Origin: an uncultured bacterium
GTDB lineage: Bacteria > DAOPZR01
Direction of reading: 5' to 3'
Assembly: GCA_964517215.1 (NCBI GenBank)
Contig: CAZFBR010000001.1
Location: 24,907-88,906, forward strand
Length of the DNA: 64,000 nucleotides
Both the position numbers and the translations under genes were made by a program. Below, in pieces: positions 3,776-56,418 of this stretch. The notes beneath the pieces are model-generated. The model was not told where the DNA came from, searched no databases, and saw only the letters and a program-made list of their open reading frames with translations. Positions within the stretch are counted from its first letter, which is position 1. Each line of letters starts with the position of its first letter.

Positions 3776-3851
3776 GGGCTCTTAGCTCAATGGTTAGAGC
3801 ATCGGACTCATAATCCGGCGGTTCTGGGTTCAAGTCCCGGAGGGCCCACCA
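3776..3851 (+). tRNA. tRNA with CAU anticodon (elongator Met or lysidine-type Ile2; not initiator), CCA encoded
   Basis: 76 nt; acceptor GGGCTCT/AGGGCCC, D-arm GCTC-AATGGTTA-GAGC, anticodon loop CTCATAA, T-loop TTCAAGT; the G1-C72 pair excludes initiator; resembles E. coli ileX-type more than metT. Confidence 0.8.
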
Positions 3852-4070
3852 CTTTCGCCAGTGCCGTCCGCCTGCTGTCGTTCGCCCTGGTGGCGGTGCT
3901 GCTCGCTGCCGTCGCCGTCGCGGTCAGCACCATGGTGCCGGAGAACGGCGTCCGCACCACCGCCTCGAAGTACGCTGTTTCCAAAGACGATACCCCCTAC
4001 GCCTGATCCCCCGCCGGGTTTGCGCTCCCTGCCGGCATAATGGTATTATCCCCACCGGAGGGCGTGTATT

Positions 4071-4832
4071 GTGGCGATGCTCGAAATGGCCGGGGTGTAT
4101 ACCACGCTGGAGCACAAGGAAGTGCTGCGCGGTGTCAGCTTTTCCGTCGCTGACGGCGAAACCCTGGTCATCATCGGCCGGAGCGGCACCGGCAAGAGCG
4201 TCATCCTCAAGCATCTCATCGGCCTGATGCATCCGGACCGCGGCGCCATTTTTGTCGGCGGGACCGATATTGCCGCCTTGCGCGGCCCGGCGCTGCGCAC
4301 CGCCTGCCGCCCGGTGGCGATGCTGTTCCAGAACGGCGCGCTGTTCGATTCGCTGCGGGTGTGGGAAAACGTCGGCTTTCACCTGCTCGAGAATCTTGAC
4401 CGCCCGGTGGCGGAGGTGCAGCGGGTGGTGCGCGAAAAGCTGGCGCTGGTCGACCTGCACGGCGTCGAGCAGCTCATGCCGGCGGAACTGTCGGGCGGCA
4501 TGCGCAAGCGGGTGGCGCTGGCGCGGACGCTGGCACTGGAACCGCGGGTGCTGCTGTGGGATGAACCGACGTCGGGGCTTGATCCGGTGACGTCGGACAT
4601 CATCAACCGGCTGATCGTGCGCACGCGCGAGCAGCTCGGCCTGACGTCGGTGGTCGTCACCCACGACATGACCAGCGCCTACCAGGTCGGGCAGCGGATC
4701 GCCATGCTGCATGCAGGACGCATTCACACCATCGGCACCCCGGACCGCATCCGCGCCACCACGGATCCGGTGGTGCGGCGGTTTATCACCGGCGATGCCA
4801 GCGATCTGGTCGCCGCCGGGAACGGGGAATAG
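4071..4832 (+). CDS. mlaF: ABC transporter ATP-binding protein, MlaF/Mce-type
   Basis: Walker A GRSGTGKS, signature LSGGMRKRVALARTL, Walker B LLWDEPTSGLD; directly followed by an MCE-domain protein. Confidence 0.8.
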   Translation: MAMLEMAGVYTTLEHKEVLRGVSFSVADGETLVIIGRSGTGKSVILKHLIGLMHPDRGAIFVGGTDIAALRGPALRTACRPVAMLFQNGALFDSLRVWENVGFHLLENLDRPVAEVQRVVREKLALVDLHGVEQLMPAELSGGMRKRVALARTLALEPRVLLWDEPTSGLDPVTSDIINRLIVRTREQLGLTSVVVTHDMTSAYQVGQRIAMLHAGRIHTIGTPDRIRATTDPVVRRFITGDASDLVAAGNGE

Positions 4833-4835
4833 GTC

Positions 4836-5924
4836 ATGGACGAACAGCACCAGTTGAAAGTCGGCATCACGGTGATCGTCGGGTTCATCCTGCTGGCCGC
4901 GATCATCTTCATGGTCAGTGATTTCCACCTGCTGACGCCGGGCTCGACCTTTTTCGTCACCTTCAACTTCGCCAACGGCCTCGCCGAGGGCGCCCCGGTC
5001 ATGGTCGCCGGCGTCGAGGTGGGAACGGTCGAGGCGATTGATTTTGTCACCGACAACCAGGGCAACACCCGGGTGCAGCTGACGGTGTGGGTCAACCGCC
5101 GCGCGCGGGTGTTCCGCAACTCCAAGGCCTTCATCAACACCCTCGGCCTGATGGGGGAGAAATACCTCGAAATCACCACCGGCGAAGGCGGGGAGCAGCC
5201 CATCCGCGAAGGGGATGTGCTGGCCGGCACGGACCCGATCCGCCAGGACGAGATCCTGTCGCGCGGGGCGGAACTGGTGCGCGAATTCCAGTCGTCGGTG
5301 GCGGCGGTGAACTCCATTCTCGGCGAGGCGGGCACCCGCGACGACATCCGCAACACCCTGCACAACATGAACAACATCTCGCGGCGGATCGACAGCATCA
5401 TCGAGAAGAACGAGGGGAGCATCAACACCTCGCTGGCCAACTTCGGCCAGGCGTCGACGCGCCTCAACAGCACGGTGCAGACCTTCGACCGCATGATCAC
5501 CGGCAACGAAAAGGGGCTGACCGAGTCGATCCAGAATTTTTCCACCGGGATCGGCGAACTGCGCCTGATGGTCAGCGAAAACCGCCCCGGCCTGACCCGC
5601 GCGGTGCAGGACTTCCAGACCTTCTCGGGCGACCTGGCGGCCCTCACCCACGGCAACCGCGCCACCCTCGGCACAACCATCACCAACGTCGGCGAGGCGA
5701 GCGGCAACCTCAAGGGGGTGCTGGAGAAGATGGATGCGGTGCTGACCCGGATCAACAGCACCCAGGGCACGCTGGGCATGCTGCTCAACGATGCGACGGT
5801 GGGGAACAACCTGCGCAAGTCGTCGCAGGACCTGCGCGAGATGATCGCCTACGTCAAGTACCGGCCCTGGCTGCTCTACCGCAGCAGCGACGAGCCGCTC
5901 CGATACGGCACGGAAGAGCCATGA
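4836..5924 (+). CDS. mlaD: MCE-domain protein (MlaD-like) with long C-terminal helical extension
   Basis: N-terminal TM helix plus MCE fold (FFVTFNFANGLAEGAPVMVAGVEVGTVEAIDF); 362 aa. Confidence 0.75.
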   Translation: MDEQHQLKVGITVIVGFILLAAIIFMVSDFHLLTPGSTFFVTFNFANGLAEGAPVMVAGVEVGTVEAIDFVTDNQGNTRVQLTVWVNRRARVFRNSKAFINTLGLMGEKYLEITTGEGGEQPIREGDVLAGTDPIRQDEILSRGAELVREFQSSVAAVNSILGEAGTRDDIRNTLHNMNNISRRIDSIIEKNEGSINTSLANFGQASTRLNSTVQTFDRMITGNEKGLTESIQNFSTGIGELRLMVSENRPGLTRAVQDFQTFSGDLAALTHGNRATLGTTITNVGEASGNLKGVLEKMDAVLTRINSTQGTLGMLLNDATVGNNLRKSSQDLREMIAYVKYRPWLLYRSSDEPLRYGTEEP

Positions 5925-7300
5925 CCGCCAAAAAGGCGCGGGTTGCATTCTTCTGCAGCGACTGCGGCGCCACGGCGCCCGGCTGGCTGGGCCGCTGTCC
6001 CGGCTGCGGCAAGTTCAACACCATGGTCGAGGCGCCGGCCGCGGCCGCGCCGCATCGCGCCCGCGCCGCGGAACGGCCGGCCGCGCGGGCGCTGACCCTC
6101 AGCCAGATCCCCGCCGACCAGCTGGACCGCTGGGACACCGGCTTCGGCGAGCTCAATCGCGTGCTGGGCGGCGGGCTGGTCCCCGGCTCGCTGGTGCTCA
6201 TCGGCGGCAGTCCGGGGATCGGCAAGAGCACGCTGCTGCTGCAGGCGGCGGCGGCGCTGGCCGGGCGCGGCAAACAGGTCCTCTACGCCACCGGCGAGGA
6301 ATCGGCCGGCCAGCTGGCGCTGCGCGCGCGGCGGCTCGGCATTGCGGATCCGCGCCTGCGCGTCATCGCCGAAAGCGACCTGGCGCAGATTTTTTCCGCC
6401 GCGGACGGCTGCGAGCTGCTGGTGCTCGATTCCATCCAGGCGGTGTTCCATCCCGACGTGCCCGCGCTGCCCGGCACGGTCAGCCAGATCCGCGAATGCA
6501 CCGCGCAGCTGGTGGACTGGGCCAAGCCGCGCAACACGGCGGTGTTCATCGTCGGACACGTCACCAAGGAGGGCGCGCTGGCGGGCCCGCGGCTGCTCGA
6601 GCACATGGTGGACACGGTGCTCTATTTCGACAGCGACCAGCAGCTGTTCCACCGCATCATCCGCGCGGTCAAGAACCGCTTCGGCGCCACCAATGAACTC
6701 GGCATCTTCCGCATGGTCGAGGGCGGGCTGGAGGAGGTCAGCAACCCGTCCGACCTGTTCATCAACCAGCGCCCGGAACCGATTGCCGGGACCGCGGTGG
6801 CGGCGGTGATGTCCGGTTCCCGCCCGCTGCTGTGTGAAGTGCAGGCCCTGGGCGTGCCCACGGTCTTCGGCAATCCGCGGCGGGTGGCGTCGGGCATCGA
6901 CTACAACCGCCTGCTGATGATCCTTGCCGTGCTCGAACGCCGGGCCGGCATCCCCGTCAGCACCCGTGATATCTACGTGTCAGTCACCGGCGGGCTGCGG
7001 GTCAGCGACGATCCGGGCGCGGACCTGGCGGTGGCGCTGGCCGTGGTTTCGCACCTGCGCGACCGGCCGCTGCCGGTCGGGCTGGCCGCCATCGGTGAAC
7101 TGGCGCTGTCGGGCGAGATCCTGCCCGTGCTCGGCGGCGAGACCCGGCTGCGGGAAAGCGCCAAACTCGGGTATACCCGCGCGGTCGGACCCGCGCGGCA
7201 CATGGGCGACAAGCATCCGCTCCCGTATGCAGGAGCGTATAATCTGCACGCGGCCCTGGCGGCCGCGGAACTGTTGACGAAAGGAGGTACCGACGCATGA
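5921..7300 (+). CDS. radA: DNA repair protein RadA/Sms
   Basis: N-terminal Zn ribbon CSDCGA...CPGCGKFNT, RecA-like Walker A GGSPGIGKST, KNRFG motif, Lon-like C-terminal domain; start ATGA-overlaps the mlaD stop. Confidence 0.9.
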   Translation: MTAKKARVAFFCSDCGATAPGWLGRCPGCGKFNTMVEAPAAAAPHRARAAERPAARALTLSQIPADQLDRWDTGFGELNRVLGGGLVPGSLVLIGGSPGIGKSTLLLQAAAALAGRGKQVLYATGEESAGQLALRARRLGIADPRLRVIAESDLAQIFSAADGCELLVLDSIQAVFHPDVPALPGTVSQIRECTAQLVDWAKPRNTAVFIVGHVTKEGALAGPRLLEHMVDTVLYFDSDQQLFHRIIRAVKNRFGATNELGIFRMVEGGLEEVSNPSDLFINQRPEPIAGTAVAAVMSGSRPLLCEVQALGVPTVFGNPRRVASGIDYNRLLMILAVLERRAGIPVSTRDIYVSVTGGLRVSDDPGADLAVALAVVSHLRDRPLPVGLAAIGELALSGEILPVLGGETRLRESAKLGYTRAVGPARHMGDKHPLPYAGAYNLHAALAAAELLTKGGTDA

Positions 7301-8220
7301 GTACCATGAACACCGCCCTGGTCGGCTATCTGGTAGCGGCAGCGACGCTGCTGCTGGCCATCGGCGGCATGCTCTGCTGGCGGCGCCTGCCGGTGCGCGA
7401 TATAATCATCCGCTGCACCGGCGGCGTCATCGGGCTTATCATCAGCAATCTTCTGCTGTTTTCCGTTATCCGCTTTCTGCCCGTCCCGGCTGCGGTCTGG
7501 TTTCTGCTGCATCTGCTGTTCCTCACGTGCGGGGCCATGGTGGCGGCGGCCAAGCGGGAGGAGATCTGCCATCTGCTGCCCGTCCTCTCCGAGCACCCGG
7601 ACAGCGATCACATCGCCCCCAAGGTGCTCGACACCAGCGTGATCATCGACGGGCGCATCATCGACGTCTGCAAGAGCCGGTTTATCGAGGGCGATTTGCT
7701 GGTGCCGCGCTTCATCCTGCGCGAACTGCAGAACATTGCCGATTCCGCCGACAATCTGCGCCGCGCGCGCGGCCGGCGCGGTCTCGACATCCTCAAACAG
7801 CTGCAGCAGCATCCCGACCTGACGGTGCGGGTGACGGAGCAGGATTATCCCGAGGTGCACGAGGTGGACGGCAAGCTCATCCGGCTCGCGCAGCAGCTGT
7901 CGGCCTGCATCCTCACCAACGACTACAATCTCAACAAGGTCGCCGGCCTGCAGCAGGTCACCGTGCTCAACCTCAATGACCTGGCCAATGCGCTCAAGCC
8001 GGTGGTGCTGCCCGGCGAGGAAATGCGCATCCAGGTCATCAAGGACGGCAAGGAGGCAGGCCAGGGGGTGGGGTATCTCGACGACGGCACGATGGTGGTC
8101 GTGGACAACGGCAAGCCGCAGATCGGCCGCACCGTCAAGGTTACCGTCACCAGCATCATCCAGACCTCGGCCGGCCGGATGATTTTCACCCGCTTCGGCG
8201 ACGCCCCGGGTGAACGATGA
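7297..8220 (+). CDS. yacL: PIN/TRAM-domain membrane protein YacL-like
   Basis: N-terminal TM helices, PIN domain (VLDTSVIIDGRI), C-terminal TRAM (GRTVKVTVTSIIQTSAGRMIFTRF); conserved radA-yacL-ispD-ispF order. Confidence 0.75.
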   Translation: MSTMNTALVGYLVAAATLLLAIGGMLCWRRLPVRDIIIRCTGGVIGLIISNLLLFSVIRFLPVPAAVWFLLHLLFLTCGAMVAAAKREEICHLLPVLSEHPDSDHIAPKVLDTSVIIDGRIIDVCKSRFIEGDLLVPRFILRELQNIADSADNLRRARGRRGLDILKQLQQHPDLTVRVTEQDYPEVHEVDGKLIRLAQQLSACILTNDYNLNKVAGLQQVTVLNLNDLANALKPVVLPGEEMRIQVIKDGKEAGQGVGYLDDGTMVVVDNGKPQIGRTVKVTVTSIIQTSAGRMIFTRFGDAPGER

Positions 8221-21686: not shown

Positions 21687-23096
21687 TCAGGTGCCGAACC
21701 CGCGCCGGGTCATCCGCCCCCAGCCCTTGCGGCGCAACAGCGCGGAAACAATTCCCTGCAACCGCCAGAAATTGATCAGCTGGCGATAGCCGAAATTCTC
21801 GACCAGCGCCAGCGCAAACAGCAGGACGACATCCCGCAGCCGCTGATAGCGGCGCAGGGTCAGTTCCTCGAGTCCCACCGCCGCCAGCGACAGCACCGCC
21901 CCCAGCACAAATGCGACCATGAAAAACGCCAGCGCATAGTGCGGGGTGACAATACCGCCGGCCACCGAAGCGGCAAACACCACATAGCCGAGAAACTCGA
22001 TTACCGGACCCAGCATCTCCAGAAAATAGAAATAGGGGAAGGCGATCAGGCCGATGCCGCCGTAGCGCGGATTGAACAGCATGCGCCGGTGCCGGGCCAG
22101 GGTTTCGGTCAGACCGCGCTGCCAGCGGTCGCGCTGGCGGCGCAGCACGGCAAATTTTTCCGGACATTCCGTCCACGCCACCGGATCGGGGACAAAGCCG
22201 ATGCGGTACGGCACCTGCTGTTCGCGGCAATACCGGTGCAGGCGCACCACCAGTTCGACATCCTCCCCGACCGTGTCGCGGGTATAGCCGCCGGCGCACA
22301 CCACCACATCGCGGCGGAACACGCCAAAGGCGCCGGAGATAATGAAGGTGGCGTTGACCGCATCCCAACCCATGCGCCCGGCGAGGAAGGCGCGCAGGTA
22401 TTCCATCACCTGGAAACGTGCCAGCCATGAACGCGGCAAGCCCACCTGCCGGACCAGGCCGTCGCGCACTGTGCAGCCGTTGACGATGCGGATGATTCCG
22501 CCCGTGGCGACCACCCGGGTGTCTTCGACAAAGGGCCGGACAATGCGCAGCAGGGATTCGCGTTCAAGCAGGGTGTCCGCATCCAGGGCACAGAAGAGCG
22601 GCGTCCGGCAGAAACTGACCCCGACGTTAAGCGCATCGGCCTTGCCGCCGTTCTCCTTGTCGATCACCCACAGCTGCGGATAGCGCGCGCTGCGATAAAT
22701 CCCCCGCACTGCCTGCGCCGGCAGCGCCGCCGTCGGCAGACGTGCCGCCGGCTGCAGGGCATACGCCTCCTGCAGGCGCGCCAGCGTGCCGTCCTGCGAG
22801 CCGTCATTGATGACCATGATCTCGTAGTCGGGATAGATCAGGGTCAGCAGCGCCCGCACGCTGTCCACGCAGGTTTGTTCCTCGTTATAGGCCGGGGCCA
22901 GCAGCGTCACCGGCGGGGCAATATCGCCGGTCAGCACCTGCGCCGCGTCCAGCGCCTTCAGCCGCCGGGCATACCGGGTCAGGCCGCGAAACGCGAAGAT
23001 GCTGGTCAAGAGATAGACACTGTTGACCGCGATGAAATAGGCGAGCACCAGCCAGTTGAAGGCATGCAGGATCGACCAGGCCAGGGCGCTGCTCAT
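21687..23096 (-). CDS. Membrane glycosyltransferase family 2, processive PgaC/IcaA/NodC-like (2 N-terminal plus 3 C-terminal TM helices)
   Basis: LLAPAYNEE, D-x-D (ALDADT), GG (ATGG), QRDRWQRG (Q-x-x-RW) motifs; 469 aa from the internal ATG that ATGA-overlaps the upstream gene. Confidence 0.75.
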   Translation of the reverse strand: MSSALAWSILHAFNWLVLAYFIAVNSVYLLTSIFAFRGLTRYARRLKALDAAQVLTGDIAPPVTLLAPAYNEEQTCVDSVRALLTLIYPDYEIMVINDGSQDGTLARLQEAYALQPAARLPTAALPAQAVRGIYRSARYPQLWVIDKENGGKADALNVGVSFCRTPLFCALDADTLLERESLLRIVRPFVEDTRVVATGGIIRIVNGCTVRDGLVRQVGLPRSWLARFQVMEYLRAFLAGRMGWDAVNATFIISGAFGVFRRDVVVCAGGYTRDTVGEDVELVVRLHRYCREQQVPYRIGFVPDPVAWTECPEKFAVLRRQRDRWQRGLTETLARHRRMLFNPRYGGIGLIAFPYFYFLEMLGPVIEFLGYVVFAASVAGGIVTPHYALAFFMVAFVLGAVLSLAAVGLEELTLRRYQRLRDVVLLFALALVENFGYRQLINFWRLQGIVSALLRRKGWGRMTRRGFGT

Positions 23097-24142
23097 TGCT
23101 GCTGCTCCAGTTGGCGGAACAGCGCGGCGCGCGGATGCCCGGCCGCCGCCAGCCGGGCCAGTTCGCCCGCGCCGTGCAGCCGCTGCAGCGCCCGCGCCGC
23201 CGCCATCGCCACCCATACCGAGGCATCGTCCAGCAGCGGGCGCAGGAACGGGGCATCGGCCGGCAGCCCGAACGCCGCCAGGGCGGCCGCCGCCTGACCG
23301 CGCAGAATCGCGTCAGGATCCCGCAGCAGCAAACGGACCGTCGGCAGCTGTTCCGCGGTCCCGACCGCCGCCAGCAGGCGCAGCGCGGCGGCGCGCAATT
23401 CGCGGTCGCTCGTTGTCGTCGCTGCCAGTGCGGCGGCGGGTGCGGCGGCGGCGGCATGATGCAGCTGCCGCAGCGCTTCCGCCGCCACGAGGCGCGTCTG
23501 CACCGGCGCCTGCGCGTCGGTGAAGCAGGCCAGCAGCTGGTCGCTGGCGGGCGGCCGTGCCAGGAGTGCCGCCAGATACCGCGGCTGCCACAAGGCAAAG
23601 CGCGGCATCACGGCCAGCAGTTCCGGCAGGAACCGGGTTCCGGCGGTTGTCGCCAATGCCCGCGCCGCAGTCATCGCCACCAGCGGAGAGCGATCCTGCA
23701 GTGCCGCGAGAAACAGGGTCTCATACCGGCCGGCGGCCAACTGGCCCAGGGTCTGCACGGCCCGGGCACGCTGCTCCGCATCGCCGTTAGCGGCCTGACC
23801 CTCGATATGCCGGAGATACGGCAGTGCGAGCTGGCTCAGCCGCTCGGCTTCGACGCCGCGCAGGCGCTGCCGCAGGCGCAGCAGGTAATCGAGAAAACGG
23901 GCGGCATCGGCCGGGGCAACCGCCGGCGGTGCCGCCGGCTCGCCGGCCAGCGCCGCGAATACCGGCGCCTGCCACTCCTGTTCCAGCCGAAGCCAATGCG
24001 CTGCCCGCCGCCGGTTGCGCCGTCGCAACAGGATCGCGCTGCAGGAAAACGCCAGCGCCAGCAGCAGCAGGAGCGCGATGCTGATAGCCAGGATCCGGAG
24101 CAGGTGATCCTGCGCCGTCAGGGAAAAAAAGGCGGTGAGCAT
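23093..24142 (-). CDS. Membrane-anchored HEAT/PBS-lyase-like repeat protein
   Basis: N-terminal TM helix (ILAISIALLLLLALAF), then repeated ~30-aa units of the form xxVRxxAAxALGxxG; stop overlaps the GT2 start (ATGA). Confidence 0.6.
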   Translation of the reverse strand: MLTAFFSLTAQDHLLRILAISIALLLLLALAFSCSAILLRRRNRRRAAHWLRLEQEWQAPVFAALAGEPAAPPAVAPADAARFLDYLLRLRQRLRGVEAERLSQLALPYLRHIEGQAANGDAEQRARAVQTLGQLAAGRYETLFLAALQDRSPLVAMTAARALATTAGTRFLPELLAVMPRFALWQPRYLAALLARPPASDQLLACFTDAQAPVQTRLVAAEALRQLHHAAAAAPAAALAATTTSDRELRAAALRLLAAVGTAEQLPTVRLLLRDPDAILRGQAAAALAAFGLPADAPFLRPLLDDASVWVAMAAARALQRLHGAGELARLAAAGHPRAALFRQLEQQQ

Positions 24143-24145
24143 CAG

Positions 24146-25585
24146 CTATTTCCGGCGCAACAGCCGCCGGGCGCGCGCCACGAGCTCCGTCGGGGAGAAG
24201 GGTTTGGTCAGATAGTCGTTGGCGCCCAGTTCCAGCCCGCGGCTCAGATCGTGCTCCGCACTCAGTCCGGTGAGGATGATGACCGGCACACCGGTGCAGT
24301 CCGGCCGGGCGCGCAGTTCCCGCAGCACCTGCAGACCGTCCTTGACCGGCATCTGCACGTCGAGAAGGATGAGGTCGTACCGCTCGTGCGCAACGGCCTG
24401 CAGCGCGGCCTGGCCGTCCGCAACCTGATCGACCGTCATTCCCTCGCGCTGCAGGCGATGGCTGATCAGGGCGACGAAGAGCGGATCGTCGTCGGCCAGC
24501 AGGACCCGCTGACGCTGGCCGATACTGCAGGATTCCGGGGTTACCGTGCAATTGCGTCCATGGCTTTTTGCCGCCTCAAGGCAGCGCGCGGCCGCATCTG
24601 CCGCCAGCGGCAGCTCGGCAACCGTGACCGGCACCACGCCGGCGGAAAAGGTCGGCGGCGGCGGCGGGTCTGTCGCCAGACGCTGCCGCACCCCCGCGAT
24701 TGCCGCTGCCACCGCCGCCAGCGGTCCGGCGGCATACAGCAGGAGCACGGCGCTGTCCGTCCAGCGACTGATTGCGACGGGCGCGGGGGTCGCTGCGCGC
24801 AGCAGCCCGAGCAGCCGGCGCAGCAAGGCATCGCCCGCGGCCATCCCGCGTGCGGCGTTGAGTGCGGCCAGATTATCGACGTCCAGCATCGCCAGGCATG
24901 GCGGATTATCCGCGGCGGCGGTCCGGACTGCGCCGGCAAACGCCGACACCAATGCGGCGCGATTGCCGGCTGTTGCCAGCAGGTCCGGTGGTGCGGCGGT
25001 ATGCTGATCCAGTTGCGCACTGACCGCAGCCAGGACCTGCGCCGGGGCAAAGGGTTTGGCGAGACAGGCTGCCGCCCCCAGCGCCAGGCATTCGGCCTGC
25101 ACCGCATCGCCGATCCTGCCGGAGAGCACAATCACCGGAACGGTGGCGGTTGCGGGCTGTTCCCGGAACTGCACCAGCAGATTGCGGCCGTCAATGTCAC
25201 CCAGCATCAGATCAAGCAGAATCAGGTTGGGCGGTTGCGCCGCAATCAGCTGCTCCGCCTGGACCGCAGTGGCAGCGCTGAGGACCGTCCGGCCCGGTCC
25301 GCGCAACAGGTCGCCCAGCAGCTGGCGCATGGCCTCATCATCGTCGATAATCAGTACGGTCGCGCCGGCCGCGCCGGCCATGGCATCGAGTGCCGCCAGC
25401 AGTTCGCGGGCGGCCGCCGCCATCTCCTCCGGCGGCGCGGTCCGCACCCGCTGCTGCGCTGCTGCCACGGCGTCGGAAACCGGCTCCGGGATGGTCGCTG
25501 CCAGCCGGCGGACCGTGGCGGCCAGCTCCGTCGCCGATTCCTGATGGGTCAGCGCCAGCCGCAGCGCCGCGCGCGTGGCATTCAT
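24146..25585 (-). CDS. Response regulator, REC - degenerate GGDEF - REC
   Basis: REC1 (LIIDDDEAM...LLDLMLGDIDG...AKPF), GGDEF-like core (LAMLDVDNLAALNAARGMAAGDALLRRL) with the GG[DE]EF position reading RWTDS, REC2 (LLADDDPLF...LLDVQMPVKDG...TKPFSPTEL). Confidence 0.7.
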   Translation of the reverse strand: MNATRAALRLALTHQESATELAATVRRLAATIPEPVSDAVAAAQQRVRTAPPEEMAAAARELLAALDAMAGAAGATVLIIDDDEAMRQLLGDLLRGPGRTVLSAATAVQAEQLIAAQPPNLILLDLMLGDIDGRNLLVQFREQPATATVPVIVLSGRIGDAVQAECLALGAAACLAKPFAPAQVLAAVSAQLDQHTAAPPDLLATAGNRAALVSAFAGAVRTAAADNPPCLAMLDVDNLAALNAARGMAAGDALLRRLLGLLRAATPAPVAISRWTDSAVLLLYAAGPLAAVAAAIAGVRQRLATDPPPPPTFSAGVVPVTVAELPLAADAAARCLEAAKSHGRNCTVTPESCSIGQRQRVLLADDDPLFVALISHRLQREGMTVDQVADGQAALQAVAHERYDLILLDVQMPVKDGLQVLRELRARPDCTGVPVIILTGLSAEHDLSRGLELGANDYLTKPFSPTELVARARRLLRRK

Positions 25586-25607: not shown

Positions 25608-26756
25608 TCATTTTTTCAGTACCGCGAGCATGGCCCGGAACGGGGCGGAGAATTCCGTGCGCAAATCGGTGAAAATTGAACGATAGGTGCGGTCACCGCG
25701 CAACAGTTCTTCGAAATAGCCGACGACCTTCCGGTTCTTGACCCCCAGCTTGTAGGAAATGTACGGATGCCGGAAAAAAATGTCCGCCAGCTTGCCGGCA
25801 TAGGCAAGATCATCGCGAATCTCCGCGTCCACCTGCTCCTGGTAGCGCGCGAGCGGGGTTCCGGCAAGAATTGTCTGCGCCGCCAGCTCACCCGACCGGG
25901 CGGCAAAATAGATGCCTTCGCCGGAGAGCGGGTCGACGAGGCAGGCGGCGTCGCCGGTGAGCAGCGTGCGCCGGCCGATCAGCGGATCGCGGGCGCCGCA
26001 GTAGGGGAGCGGCCAGCCGCGCACCTCTGCTGCCAGCCGCTGCCGGGTGTTGGTCATGCCGTCGAGAAACCGCTCCAATACCGCCCGCGCGTCCGGCATT
26101 CTGCGCCGGGCCGAGCCGATGCCGCAGGAAAAATGCTCCCGTTTCGGGAAGATCCAGCCGTAGCCCTCGGGCACATCACCCACATCCATTGCCGCGACCG
26201 CACCCTGGTTCGCCCGTGCCTCAGGCGATATCCGCACTTCCGCATTGAGTGCCACCCCGAGATAGCGGTTCGGGGTCAGCTGCAGCGCGCGCGCGATCCG
26301 GCTGTGCGCACCGTCTGCCGCCACCAGCCAGTCAGCCGTATGCACCGCGCCCGCCGCGGTGGTGACGGTGACGCCGGTCGGGGTCTCCGCCACGGTGGTG
26401 ACGGTTTCCCCCTCGTGCAACTCCGCACCCGCCGCCTGTGCCTGGCGCGCCAGCCACCGGTCGAACGGGGCGCGCATGACCATCATGATCCCCGGGCCGT
26501 GCGCCTGTTCCGTTACGGCGTCGCTGAACCGGTAACTGAAGGTCGTTGCGGTTACGGTGCATTCCACCAGTTCGGGCGGCAGTGCGCCGGTCAGTCGCAC
26601 CAGATGCGGCGGGATGCCGCCGGCACAGATTTTGACGCGCGGCAGGTGCTCTTTTTCCAGCAGCAGCACACGCGCTCCGCCCCGGGCCAGGTCACGCGCG
26701 GCAATGCTTCCTGCCGGCCCGCTTCCGACAACGATGACAGTTGTTTTCACGTTCAC
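25608..26756 (-). CDS. FAD-dependent oxidoreductase, geranylgeranyl reductase family
   Basis: GXGXXG (VIVVGSGPAGSIAARDLA), ICAGGIP, geranylgeranyl-reductase-like length; start set at the GTG near the Rossmann fold, overlapping the upstream gene. Confidence 0.7.
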   Translation of the reverse strand: MNVKTTVIVVGSGPAGSIAARDLARGGARVLLLEKEHLPRVKICAGGIPPHLVRLTGALPPELVECTVTATTFSYRFSDAVTEQAHGPGIMMVMRAPFDRWLARQAQAAGAELHEGETVTTVAETPTGVTVTTAAGAVHTADWLVAADGAHSRIARALQLTPNRYLGVALNAEVRISPEARANQGAVAAMDVGDVPEGYGWIFPKREHFSCGIGSARRRMPDARAVLERFLDGMTNTRQRLAAEVRGWPLPYCGARDPLIGRRTLLTGDAACLVDPLSGEGIYFAARSGELAAQTILAGTPLARYQEQVDAEIRDDLAYAGKLADIFFRHPYISYKLGVKNRKVVGYFEELLRGDRTYRSIFTDLRTEFSAPFRAMLAVLKK

Positions 26757-27247
26757 GACCCCAGTGGTAGTGACTGCAGTACGGCCGCGGCATCCCGGGC
26801 GGCGCGGGTTTCCGGAAACTGGCGGATGCAGATCGTGAGCGCGGCATTGGCCGCCGGATAGCGGCCCAGCCGCTTGAGGCATTGGCCCTGCAGGTACCAC
26901 AGCTGCGCTTCGCTGTCACAGCCGCGATAGCGTTCGCCCAGCTGTTCCGCCGCCGCCAGCGCCGCGGTATCATCACCCTGATTCATCAGCGTTGCCACCA
27001 GCAGCGGCGCGGCCTGCATCGCCCATTGGCTCTCCGGGTGGTCCGCCAGCAGGGTGCGTGCCGCCGCCGCCGCGTGCACCCAGTCGCCGGTTTTGTCGAA
27101 GCCGACATTCGTCCAATGAAATATTACGGCGTTGTATTGCCGGTGGGCAGCGGCGTCCTGCTGTTCAAACCGATAGAGGGCATACCACAGCAGGCCGGCC
27201 AGCACTGCTGTCAGGCCCAGGATAATGGCGTAATTCCGCCGCCGCAT
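26753..27247 (-). CDS. Membrane-anchored TPR-like repeat protein
   Basis: N-terminal TM helix (YAIILGLTAVLAGLLWYALY), helical repeat region (YLQGQCLKRLGRYPAANAAL). Confidence 0.5.
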   Translation of the reverse strand: MRRRNYAIILGLTAVLAGLLWYALYRFEQQDAAAHRQYNAVIFHWTNVGFDKTGDWVHAAAAARTLLADHPESQWAMQAAPLLVATLMNQGDDTAALAAAEQLGERYRGCDSEAQLWYLQGQCLKRLGRYPAANAALTICIRQFPETRAARDAAAVLQSLPLGS

Positions 27248-55026: not shown

Positions 55027-56418
55027 ATGCTGGCGCGCGCCCGACGGATGCTGGCCATTGCGGCGGCCAAACTGGCTTATCATGCCGCCCGGGCCACCGG
55101 TCGCGGCGGCGGGACGGCCTTTCCCGGCCTGGTGGCGCAGGCCCTGTGTCCCGGCCTGCTGGCCGCGCTGACCGGCGGACTGCCGCGCGGCTCGCTGGTG
55201 GTCACCGGCACCAACGGCAAGACGACCACCACGCGCATGCTGTCGGATTCCCTGACGCTGGCGGGTTGGTCGGTGGCGCACAACCGGCACGGCTCGAACC
55301 TGCTGCGCGGGGTCACCGCGGCGGCGGCGCTGCAGAGCACCGCCGCCGGGGTGCTGCCCGCCACCGTCGGGTTGTGGGAAACCGACGAGGCGGCCTTTCC
55401 CGCCATCGTCGCCGCGGTGCAGCCGCGGGTGATTGTCATCACCAACCTGTTTCGCGACCAGCTCGACCGCTACGGCGAGACGGAACAGATCCGCAGCCGC
55501 TGGGTCAGCGTGCTGCCGGCGCTGCCGCGCGCAACCCTGGTGCTCAATGCCGACGACCCGTCGGTGGCCACGCTGGGGGCGGCGCATCCGGGGCCGGTGG
55601 TCTATTTCGGGATCAGCGACGACAGCTGCCGCCAGGCGGGCGACGCCCATGCCAGCGACGTGCGCACCTGCCGGCGCTGCAACGGGACGCTGACCTACCG
55701 CCAGCATTTTCTCAGCCATCTGGGCGATTGGTCCTGTCCCGCCTGCGGCGATCGCCGTCCGGCGCTGACGTTCAGCGCCAGCGCCATCGCCCCGACGCTG
55801 CGCGACTGCTCGTTTCGCCTGACCACGCCGGCGGGAACGCAGCAGATCCGGCTGCCGCTGGCCGGCACGTACAATGTCTACAACGCGCTGGCGGCAATTG
55901 CCGCCGCGAGCGCCCTGGCGCTGGACGCTGCCGGGGCCGTGGCGGCGCTGGCGAAATTCCAGCCCGCCTTCGGCCGCTTTGAACGGCTCGCGGTGGCCGG
56001 TCGCGAACTGTGCCTGTTTCTGGTGAAAAATCCGACCGGCGCCAATGCCGTCCTGCAGACGCTGGCTGCGGCGAACGAGCGGCAGCTCCCGGTGCTGGTC
56101 GCCATTAACGACCTGACTGCCGACGGGCATGATGTTTCCTGGCTGTGGGATGCCGATTTCGAGCTGCTGGCCGGTTGCGCGTCACCGGTGGCGACGGCGG
56201 GCATTCGCGGCGCGGATATGGCGGTGCGGCTGAAATACGCGGGCCTGCCGGCGCCGGCGGTGATGCCGGGCGATGACAGCGGCGAAGCGCTGTATGCCTG
56301 GCTGCAGACCATTCCCGCGGGCGCGACGGCGTACTGCCTTGCCACCTACACCGCCATGCTGGCCATCCAGAAGATGCTCGCCGCGCGCGGCTGCAAGGCG
56401 CCGTACTGGAAGGAATGA
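55027..56418 (+). CDS. murT: Lipid II isoglutaminyl synthase MurT (Mur-ligase family with Zn ribbon plus DUF1727)
   Basis: VTGTNGKTTTTRM, Cys4 ribbon CRRCNG...CPACG, DUF1727-like C-terminus. Confidence 0.8.
   Translation: MLARARRMLAIAAAKLAYHAARATGRGGGTAFPGLVAQALCPGLLAALTGGLPRGSLVVTGTNGKTTTTRMLSDSLTLAGWSVAHNRHGSNLLRGVTAAAALQSTAAGVLPATVGLWETDEAAFPAIVAAVQPRVIVITNLFRDQLDRYGETEQIRSRWVSVLPALPRATLVLNADDPSVATLGAAHPGPVVYFGISDDSCRQAGDAHASDVRTCRRCNGTLTYRQHFLSHLGDWSCPACGDRRPALTFSASAIAPTLRDCSFRLTTPAGTQQIRLPLAGTYNVYNALAAIAAASALALDAAGAVAALAKFQPAFGRFERLAVAGRELCLFLVKNPTGANAVLQTLAAANERQLPVLVAINDLTADGHDVSWLWDADFELLAGCASPVATAGIRGADMAVRLKYAGLPAPAVMPGDDSGEALYAWLQTIPAGATAYCLATYTAMLAIQKMLAARGCKAPYWKE

Follow-up and report, generated by a model that had tools for sequence, protein, structure and literature searches.

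How does a membrane-integrated polysaccharide synthase work when the usual partners of its closest family are missing and its gene instead shares a stop/start overlap with one for a HEAT-repeat protein? The question is raised by a 64,000-nucleotide (nt) stretch of DNA from an uncultured bacterium (GTDB lineage DAOPZR01; assembly GCA_964517215.1, contig CAZFBR010000001.1, positions 24,907 to 88,906), referred to here as the window. Three consecutive genes on its minus strand encode a response regulator, a membrane-anchored HEAT-repeat protein and a synthase of glycosyltransferase family 2 (GT2). We favour, with modest confidence, the reading that these three genes form the core of a synthase-dependent exopolysaccharide system not yet described, with the HEAT protein in the co-subunit role of PgaD, BcsB or Alg44.

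The general plan of such systems comprises a GT2 synthase, a co-subunit for activity or stability, a nucleotide or other signalling input and a TPR/barrel exporter (PMC8892547; PMC7112194; PMC8669469). A non-homologous inner-membrane co-polymerase (BcsB, Alg44, PelE, PgaD) is a shared element of such systems (PMC8892547; PMC7112194). The gene anatomy of the locus fits this plan, with the co-subunit slot filled by a single-pass protein bearing a cytoplasmic HEAT solenoid.

Gene anatomy and co-conservation

The HEAT protein, our proposed synthase co-subunit (349 amino acids (aa), positions 23093-24142; all coordinates within the three genes refer to the minus strand), is encoded directly upstream of the GT2 (469 aa, 21687-23096). 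Direct reading of the sequence showed that the two genes share an ATGA at 23093-23096, where the HEAT stop codon TGA occupies 23093-23095 and the GT2 start codon ATG 23094-23096, an arrangement that permits translational coupling. A GGAG is located 8 nt 5' of this ATG. The mechanical list of open reading frames (ORFs), which takes the longest frame, gives the GT2 as 509 aa. The 469-aa start and the 4-nt overlap were supported by homolog alignment and by three independent public gene calls on contigs of the same organism; with these in agreement and GGAG upstream, the coordinates and description used here are therefore correct. The REC-GGDEF-REC response regulator, whose GGDEF domain is degenerate (479 aa, 24146-25585), lies immediately upstream on the same strand, with its stop codon 3 nt before the HEAT start. 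A first-pass annotation, made from the sequence alone, had placed both ORFs, their overlap and this regulator in the same way.

Conservation of the pair was assessed in a scan of a genome collection for the GT2, which returned 574 relatives; the locus counts given throughout are for the best 80 of these 574. The 80 loci came from Gemmatimonadota (50), Marinimicrobia/Fidelibacterota/FCB (14), unclassified lineages (8), Rhodothermales (2) and Elusimicrobiota (2), with one each from Nitrospirota, Planctomycetota, Lentisphaeria and Sericytochromatia. Omnitrophota were also among the GT2 protein matches. Since 50 of the 80 loci belong to Gemmatimonadota, the counts are not phylogenetically independent. 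HEAT genes were identified with a hidden Markov model (HMM) built from the few homologs then at hand, and one locus was left out as a contig end falls inside its GT2. A HEAT homolog (HMM E<=1e-40) adjoined the GT2 in all 79 assessable loci, and in 78 of them it was upstream on the same strand. An NTGA stop/start overlap was available in 55 of 77 loci, and 72 of the 77 had spacings from -8 to +7 nt. HEAT homologs at 27-29% identity still overlapped a 469-aa GT2 by 4 nt. The pairing is far beyond chance and recurs in at least eight bacterial phyla. A lack of co-conservation of the HEAT gene with the GT2 across genomes, named at first pass as an outcome that would refute the proposal, was thus not found, and the overlap at the GT2 start is kept across phyla.

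Identity to the window proteins differed between the two partners in the same genomes, at 58-68% across phyla for the GT2 and 25-42% for the HEAT protein. The high conservation of the GT2 suggests strong constraint on the enzyme or transfer of the cassette between phyla.

Some loci departed from the common arrangement. The Sericytochromatia locus (L078) alone departs from the same-strand order; its HEAT gene (3847-5517, minus strand), followed by a YaiO gene, is divergent from the GT2 (5523-6935, plus strand). In the Lentisphaeria locus (L073) the HEAT gene is split into two ORFs (6659-7663 and 7693-7974, plus strand), possibly a pseudogene or an assembly error. Two separate HEAT-GT2 loci (L041 and L069) occur ~0.5 Mb apart in one Gemmatimonadaceae genome (contig CAWBNF010000001.1), and the cassette can therefore be duplicated.

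Family and fold of the synthase

Pfam matches to the GT2 were Glyco_tranf_2_3 (74 bits), Glycos_transf_2 (68 bits) and Chitin_synth_2 (36 bits, residues 297-446). The top NCBIfam model was PgaC_IcaA (TIGR03937), at 129.1 bits against an equivalog cutoff of 422.3; cellulose synthase, NodC and other models scored below it. In BLASTP comparisons, E. coli PgaC matched over 320 residues at 24.7% identity (E 2e-27), followed by YaiP (E 4e-6) and NfrB (E 1e-3). PgaC orthology was rejected, because the family score falls far under the equivalog cutoff and the operon partners are missing.

Sequence motifs were examined in a 20-sequence cross-phylum alignment, which served to judge invariance and to build a profile. 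The D, D-x-D and Q-x-x-RW motifs claimed at first pass were all present. These are the invariant DGS motif carrying the nucleotide-sugar binding aspartate D98 (22797-22805), the invariant metal-binding DAD (DxD) motif at residues 172-174 (22575-22583) and the acceptor-binding QRDRW (QxxRW) motif at residues 321-325 (22122-22136), with Q321, R322, R324 and W325 invariant. A GED motif at residues 277-279 (22260-22268; G277, E278 and D279 invariant) aligned with the catalytic-base TED of BcsA. BcsA (4hg6/5ej1) was the closest solved relative in the profile comparison, in which QRDRW likewise aligned with its QRGRW. The GT2 thus has the GT-A domain and the D, DxD, (T/G)ED and QxxRW motifs that define the superfamily of membrane-integrated processive GT2 synthases (BcsA, hyaluronan synthase (HAS), chitin synthase and PgaC).

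The AlphaFold model of the GT2 (predicted local distance difference test score (pLDDT) 80.5, predicted template modelling score (pTM) 0.83) contained a single long N-terminal helix (residues 2-48), the GT-A domain and helices at 315-340, 347-379, 385-414, 420-432 and 437-453, with the last 16 residues unstructured. Helices 347-379 and 385-414, which follow the transferase domain, are clearly hydrophobic, and the two within 420-453 are possibly amphipathic. The 2+3 transmembrane (TM) topology first assigned to the protein did not survive this comparison: the model has one N-terminal TM helix (hydrophobic residues 8-36, 22989-23075), two clear C-terminal helices and two that are possibly amphipathic. 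In Foldseek searches of the PDB, the top-ranked structures were hyaluronan synthases of Chlorella virus and Xenopus (E 7e-15, TM-score 0.63), followed by BcsA, chitin synthases and CesA. To enzymes of the DPM/ArnC/GtrB type the model bore far less resemblance than to HAS, BcsA and a minimal mannosyltransferase of cellulose-synthase-like fold. A grouping with DPM/DPG-type transferases, an outcome named at first pass as fatal to a synthase assignment, was thus found neither by motifs nor by fold, and the DPM/ArnC/GtrB type was rejected on the presence of QxxRW and on the fold ranking. By family resemblance, the substrate is probably a hexosamine such as UDP-N-acetylglucosamine (UDP-GlcNAc).

The GT2 ends in a conserved C-terminal cytoplasmic tail, KGWGRMTRRGF (21696-21728), that is a candidate docking peptide. 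Five of its residues (W459, G460, M462, G466, F467) are invariant, and R464 reaches at least 90% conservation, in a segment modelled at pLDDT ~50 with no secondary structure. A similar R-W-x5-R-G tail ends E. coli PgaC.

The HEAT-repeat protein

The partner had been described as a protein with one TM helix and HEAT repeats, and this description was upheld. Pfam HEAT_2 matched in four stretches with 87.8 bits (cutoff 27.7), and the AlphaFold model (pLDDT 92) showed a continuous helix at residues 13-65 and about nine helical hairpins after residue 77. The single TM helix comprises residues 13-38 (24029-24106; Kyte-Doolittle peak 2.76), with RRRNRRR directly after it. Under the positive-inside rule this basic stretch would place the solenoid in the cytoplasm, and the protein is accordingly predicted to be oriented N-out, C-in. 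An N-terminal SH3b domain in a HEAT homolog fits an outside N-terminus. The homolog is a 539-aa family representative (P0143) with this bacterial SH3 domain N-terminal to the TM helix and solenoid, which suggests periplasmic or cell-wall contact in some lineages.

Foldseek and profile searches of solved structures matched the HEAT protein to generic protein-binding solenoids only (alphaRep, importin-alpha, PP2A A subunit). Conserved positions among 69 orthologues were structural leucines and alanines together with R40, N43, W50, E54, W57, E98, R125, R127, D150, W185, R217, R281 and W310. Conservation within the TM helix was restricted to one face (L15, L18, L25, A29, F32, A36, L39, R40), with a 100-degree periodicity as high in 0 of 5000 shuffles. 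The first TM helix of the GT2 likewise has one conserved face, here polar (N14, Y20, Y28, T31, S32), and 0 of 5000 shuffles reached the observed periodicity. Such one-sided conservation in both helices is unexpected for a simple anchor and suggests helix-helix packing in the membrane.

Word-indexed searches with the alanine-rich HEAT sequence recovered 10-11 relatives only; the remainder came from exhaustive profile search and the locus-based HMM. The exhaustive search returned 1605 representatives at E<=1e-30 among 1.84 billion cluster representatives; giant HEAT-repeat proteins of a generic kind are counted among them. Most of the top 150 representatives are 340-370 aa long with a single full-length match.

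The regulator and the wider cassette

Pfam matches to the regulator were Response_reg (185 bits, two stretches) and GGDEF (32 bits, cutoff 23.8, residues 203-345), and tblastn aligned it with an Hpt-REC-GGDEF-REC protein of a related locus (L012) at 36% identity (E 2e-58, residues 96-501). The DD...D...T/S...K receiver residues are kept in the translation of both REC domains. In an alignment of 67 orthologous upstream regulators, the window protein had TDSAV (24746-24760) at the GG[DE]EF position of the diguanylate-cyclase site, and an active cyclase was rejected on this basis. No RxxD I-site was found in it; PAPVAISRW stands upstream of the GGDEF position. A PelD/PssE-type role as a degenerate-GGDEF receptor for cyclic di-GMP (c-di-GMP) was rejected for the window domain on the lack of RxxD. 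The GG[DE]EF motif was intact in 20 of the 67 regulators, mainly from Marinimicrobia and relatives, 19 of which also have RxxD.

Gene content around the pair was more elaborate in related loci. A REC-containing gene is directly 5' of the HEAT gene in at least 67 of 79 loci. The typical full cassette consists of a REC protein, a MASE3-PAS-HisKA-HATPase-REC hybrid kinase, an (Hpt)-REC-GGDEF-REC protein, sometimes a single REC, the HEAT protein and the GT2; other versions have a CHASE-PAS kinase placed downstream. A gene for an outer-membrane barrel, either TPR+YaiO or YaiO-only, was present in ~38 of the 80 loci and adjoins the GT2 in at least 14, and a 900-980-aa TPR protein was seen in 17 of the 80. 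Such linkage to a barrel, seen in about half of the related loci, is what one would expect if a polymer is exported. The conserved neighbours examined in the 80 loci included no deacetylase, no glycoside hydrolase and no PilZ protein. The 64-kb window holds the three-gene core only, with no kinase, TPR/YaiO barrel, NfrA or Pga partner detectable; E. coli PgaA, PgaB and PgaD gave no tblastn match to it at E<=0.01. The absence of PgaD/IcaD, PgaB and PgaA reported at first pass was accordingly upheld across the window.

Further variation was seen in the neighbourhood of the GT2. Seven Gemmatimonadales loci (L032:16053-17222, minus strand, and six others) encode a REC + HD-GYP (HD_5) protein ~7 kb downstream of the GT2, possibly a c-di-GMP phosphodiesterase. 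In ten Marinimicrobia-type loci (L043:9404-10603, plus strand, and nine others), the gene right after the GT2 or TPR-YaiO gene encodes a conserved 399-aa protein; it matches nothing in Pfam and may be a further uncharacterised cassette component. In one locus (L061:7992-10484, plus strand) the GT2 ORF runs into a YaiO barrel domain to give 830 aa, which reflects either a genuine fusion or, in this metagenome-assembled genome, a stop that was missed or a frameshift.

Comparison with known systems

A close parallel is PgaCD/IcaAD, where a GT2 of similar size with the D, DxD, (T/G)ED and QxxRW motifs and the tail noted above depends on a small, non-homologous membrane protein from the adjacent gene (PMC7112194), and where the system has an outer-membrane TPR porin. 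PgaC has two N-terminal TM helices, whereas the present GT2 has one. The PgaCD/IcaAD partner is a 137-aa two-TM protein; here the partner gene is upstream and encodes 349 aa, comprising a single TM helix and a solenoid of HEAT repeats. Unlike Pga/Ica, the related loci examined have no PgaB/IcaB deacetylase, and the porin, where present, is YaiO-type.

NfrB-NfrA combines a GT2 with an outer-membrane TPR beta-barrel, and its activation comes from a diguanylate cyclase that is dedicated to it and physically associated (PMC8669469). Similarly, TPR/YaiO barrels and a cyclase encoded in the cassette accompany the GT2 in related loci. The c-di-GMP sensor of NfrB is a C-terminal MshEN domain with no counterpart in this GT2, and Nfr has no HEAT subunit. 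An Nfr-type system was rejected, as the GT2 has no MshEN (it ends 16 residues past its last helix, with no further Pfam domain) and the window has no barrel gene.

Pel resembles the present system in that PelE is a membrane-anchored helical-repeat (TPR) co-polymerase and PelD a degenerate-GGDEF receptor (PMC8892547). It differs in having a cytosolic transferase apart from its transporter and, by description, PelE repeats in the periplasm, and there is no sequence relation. Cellulose synthase BcsA-BcsB has its partner BcsB in the periplasm, against a predicted cytoplasmic location for the HEAT domain, and the GT2 has no PilZ domain such as BcsA carries. The class I hyaluronan synthases, Chlorella-virus HAS and Xenopus HAS1, have no partner subunit, more TM helices and ~15% identity to the GT2. 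In yeast, the processive GT2 Chs3 is activated by Chs4/Skt5, a Sel1-like helical-repeat protein tethered to the membrane on the cytoplasmic side. This eukaryotic pair is non-homologous and uses a lipid tether rather than a TM helix, and it serves as an analogy only.

Proposed mechanism and alternatives

The anatomy of the genes, their motifs, fold classes, co-conservation and the make-up of the cassette are observations. In the scheme we propose, in which the HEAT-GT2 complex, its docking sites, its product and the nature of its signal are inferred, the GT2 would polymerise a nucleotide sugar at the cytoplasmic face of the inner membrane, with the chain probably threaded through the small TM domain of the enzyme itself. 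Through the ATGA overlap, synthesis of the HEAT protein would be coupled to that of the GT2, and it would act as an obligate co-subunit, its TM helix packing against those of the synthase. Beneath the catalytic domain, the cytoplasmic solenoid would provide a protein-binding platform between regulator and GT2, possibly gripping the invariant tail KGWGxMxRxGF. Input would arrive by a two-component phosphorelay through the REC-GGDEF-REC protein. In lineages with intact GGEEF and I-site, the regulator would make c-di-GMP locally. In this genome it would most likely act by phosphorylation-dependent contact with the HEAT/GT2 complex, or c-di-GMP would come from elsewhere. Because the cyclase is dead here and in most loci while the receivers persist, phosphorylation-dependent contact is at least as likely as c-di-GMP.

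A more specific version of this scheme is tentative, and we regard it as less likely than not. The HEAT protein would represent a new class of co-subunit; the phosphorylated REC domains of the cyclase-dead regulator would dock on the solenoid, which would hold the GT2 tail and so gate polymerisation. Control would then be phosphorylation-driven and c-di-GMP-independent in most lineages, and the cyclase-active versions either ancestral or parallel.

Several observations weigh against the proposed polymer-synthase system. QxxRW is also found in non-polymerising GT21 enzymes. Genes for a porin, a deacetylase or a hydrolase are absent from the window, leaving export unexplained in this genome. The GGDEF site is degenerate or missing in 47 of 67 upstream regulators, including that of the window. 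In the 67-locus comparison, no HEAT residue was conserved solely with an intact cyclase, and in the GT2 only two trivial positions were; with the same HEAT residues conserved in either case and the cyclase dead, a c-di-GMP link is unsupported for this genome. The HEAT protein has no recognisable nucleotide-binding or other known ligand motif, and neither HEAT-GT2 nor REC-HEAT fusions occur naturally among its top 150 family representatives.

The alternative that survives best, though we think it unlikely, makes the HEAT protein itself a c-di-GMP receptor that switches on polymerisation, in the manner of the PgaC-PgaD composite site, Alg44-PilZ or PelD. Binding would occur via R40, W50, W57, R125 and R127, or jointly with the GT2 tail. 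We know of no HEAT or ARM protein that is a c-di-GMP effector, which counts against this role, and the HEAT protein has no PilZ-, I-site- or MshEN-like motif. The degenerate cyclase sites and the lack of residues specific to active-cyclase loci, given above, also speak against it. In its favour, 19-20 of 67 loci have a cassette GGDEF protein of the canonical cyclase type (GGEEF+RxxD), the GT2 carries no PilZ, MshEN or other known receptor domain, and the juxtamembrane helix of the HEAT protein is conserved and rich in arginine and tryptophan. Known synthase systems are, moreover, usually c-di-GMP-activated (PMC8892547).

We consider it somewhat less likely still that the GT2 is instead a minimal transferase of the cellulose-synthase fold whose product, as with PcManGT, GT21 or NodC, is a lipid-linked sugar, glycolipid or short oligosaccharide, with the HEAT protein as scaffold or regulator. 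The small TM domain and the match to PcManGT (the Pyrobaculum calidifontis mannosyltransferase, PDB 6yv7) are why a non-polymerising function is kept as a minority rival. The profile matches PcManGT at the N-terminal nucleotide-binding stretch only (E 2e-5), however, and the half with GED, QRDRW and the interface helix aligned to BcsA. PcManGT is archaeal, and to our knowledge it has no partner and is not a polymer maker. Further points against the alternative are that PgaC_IcaA is the top family model and that outer-membrane barrels are linked to the pair, and often adjoin the GT2, in the related loci described above.

Least probable is that the adjacency reflects co-regulation or assembly only, with the HEAT protein a chaperone, stabiliser or localisation factor (for example a polar tether) outside the working enzyme: its much faster evolution than the GT2 in the same genomes and its generic scaffold fold without catalytic or ligand motif would suit such a role, which is partly compatible with that of a co-subunit, but the constant gene order, the stop/start overlap across phyla and the conserved TM face favour a stoichiometric, lasting partner.

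Other features of the window

Two genes lie 5' of the regulator on the same strand (25608-27247, minus), with 4-nt and 22-nt spacing. They encode a 164-aa protein with a TM helix and TPR (26753-27247) and a FAD-dependent geranylgeranyl-reductase-like protein of ~382 aa. These TPR and FAD genes form a tight co-directional array with hom, thiE, the regulator, the HEAT gene and the GT2. Flanking genes in the window are housekeeping in nature: greA, pgeF-like, iorAB, hom, thiE, radA, clpC-like and murT-like. The last encodes a MurT-like Mur ligase (55027-56418, plus strand; Mur_ligase_M + MurT_C) that hints at amidated peptidoglycan stem peptides in the uncultured host.

A promoter and terminator scan of the operon gave no signal above shuffle expectation. 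Rfam and tRNA scans of the window found two tRNAs at 3-4 kb and nothing else. With PADLOC defence-system models, the GT2 had no match and the HEAT protein and regulator had generic repeat and REC matches only.

Significance

A HEAT-repeat subunit of a GT2 synthase was not described in the literature searched on HEAT proteins with synthases, poly-N-acetylglucosamine (PNAG), c-di-GMP or YaiO, and the HEAT-GT2 pairing is unmentioned in a census of synthase operons (PMC7112194). No NCBIfam model, PADLOC model or solved structure describes such a subunit either, in agreement with the first-pass view that it is an undescribed accessory protein. On our reading, the locus represents an undescribed family of synthase-dependent systems whose co-subunit is of a new type, and which has spread widely among phyla that are poorly cultured.

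Synthase-dependent systems (cellulose, PNAG, alginate, Pel, Nfr) are few, well catalogued and central to biofilm biology, and each has its own non-homologous co-subunit. If the proposed reading is true, another would be added, in which a cytoplasmic HEAT solenoid serves as a subunit without precedent and a phosphorelay is part of the cassette. As a compact two-protein synthase, the pair would lend itself to structural work on the gating of GT2 polymerases by accessory subunits. The linked GGDEF domain, active in some lineages and dead in others, offers a natural series for the gain or loss of c-di-GMP control. The carriers belong to soil, sediment and ocean phyla that are abundant yet barely cultured (Gemmatimonadota, Marinimicrobia, Elusimicrobiota, Omnitrophota, Planctomycetota), and the cassette could explain aggregation or particle attachment of these organisms.

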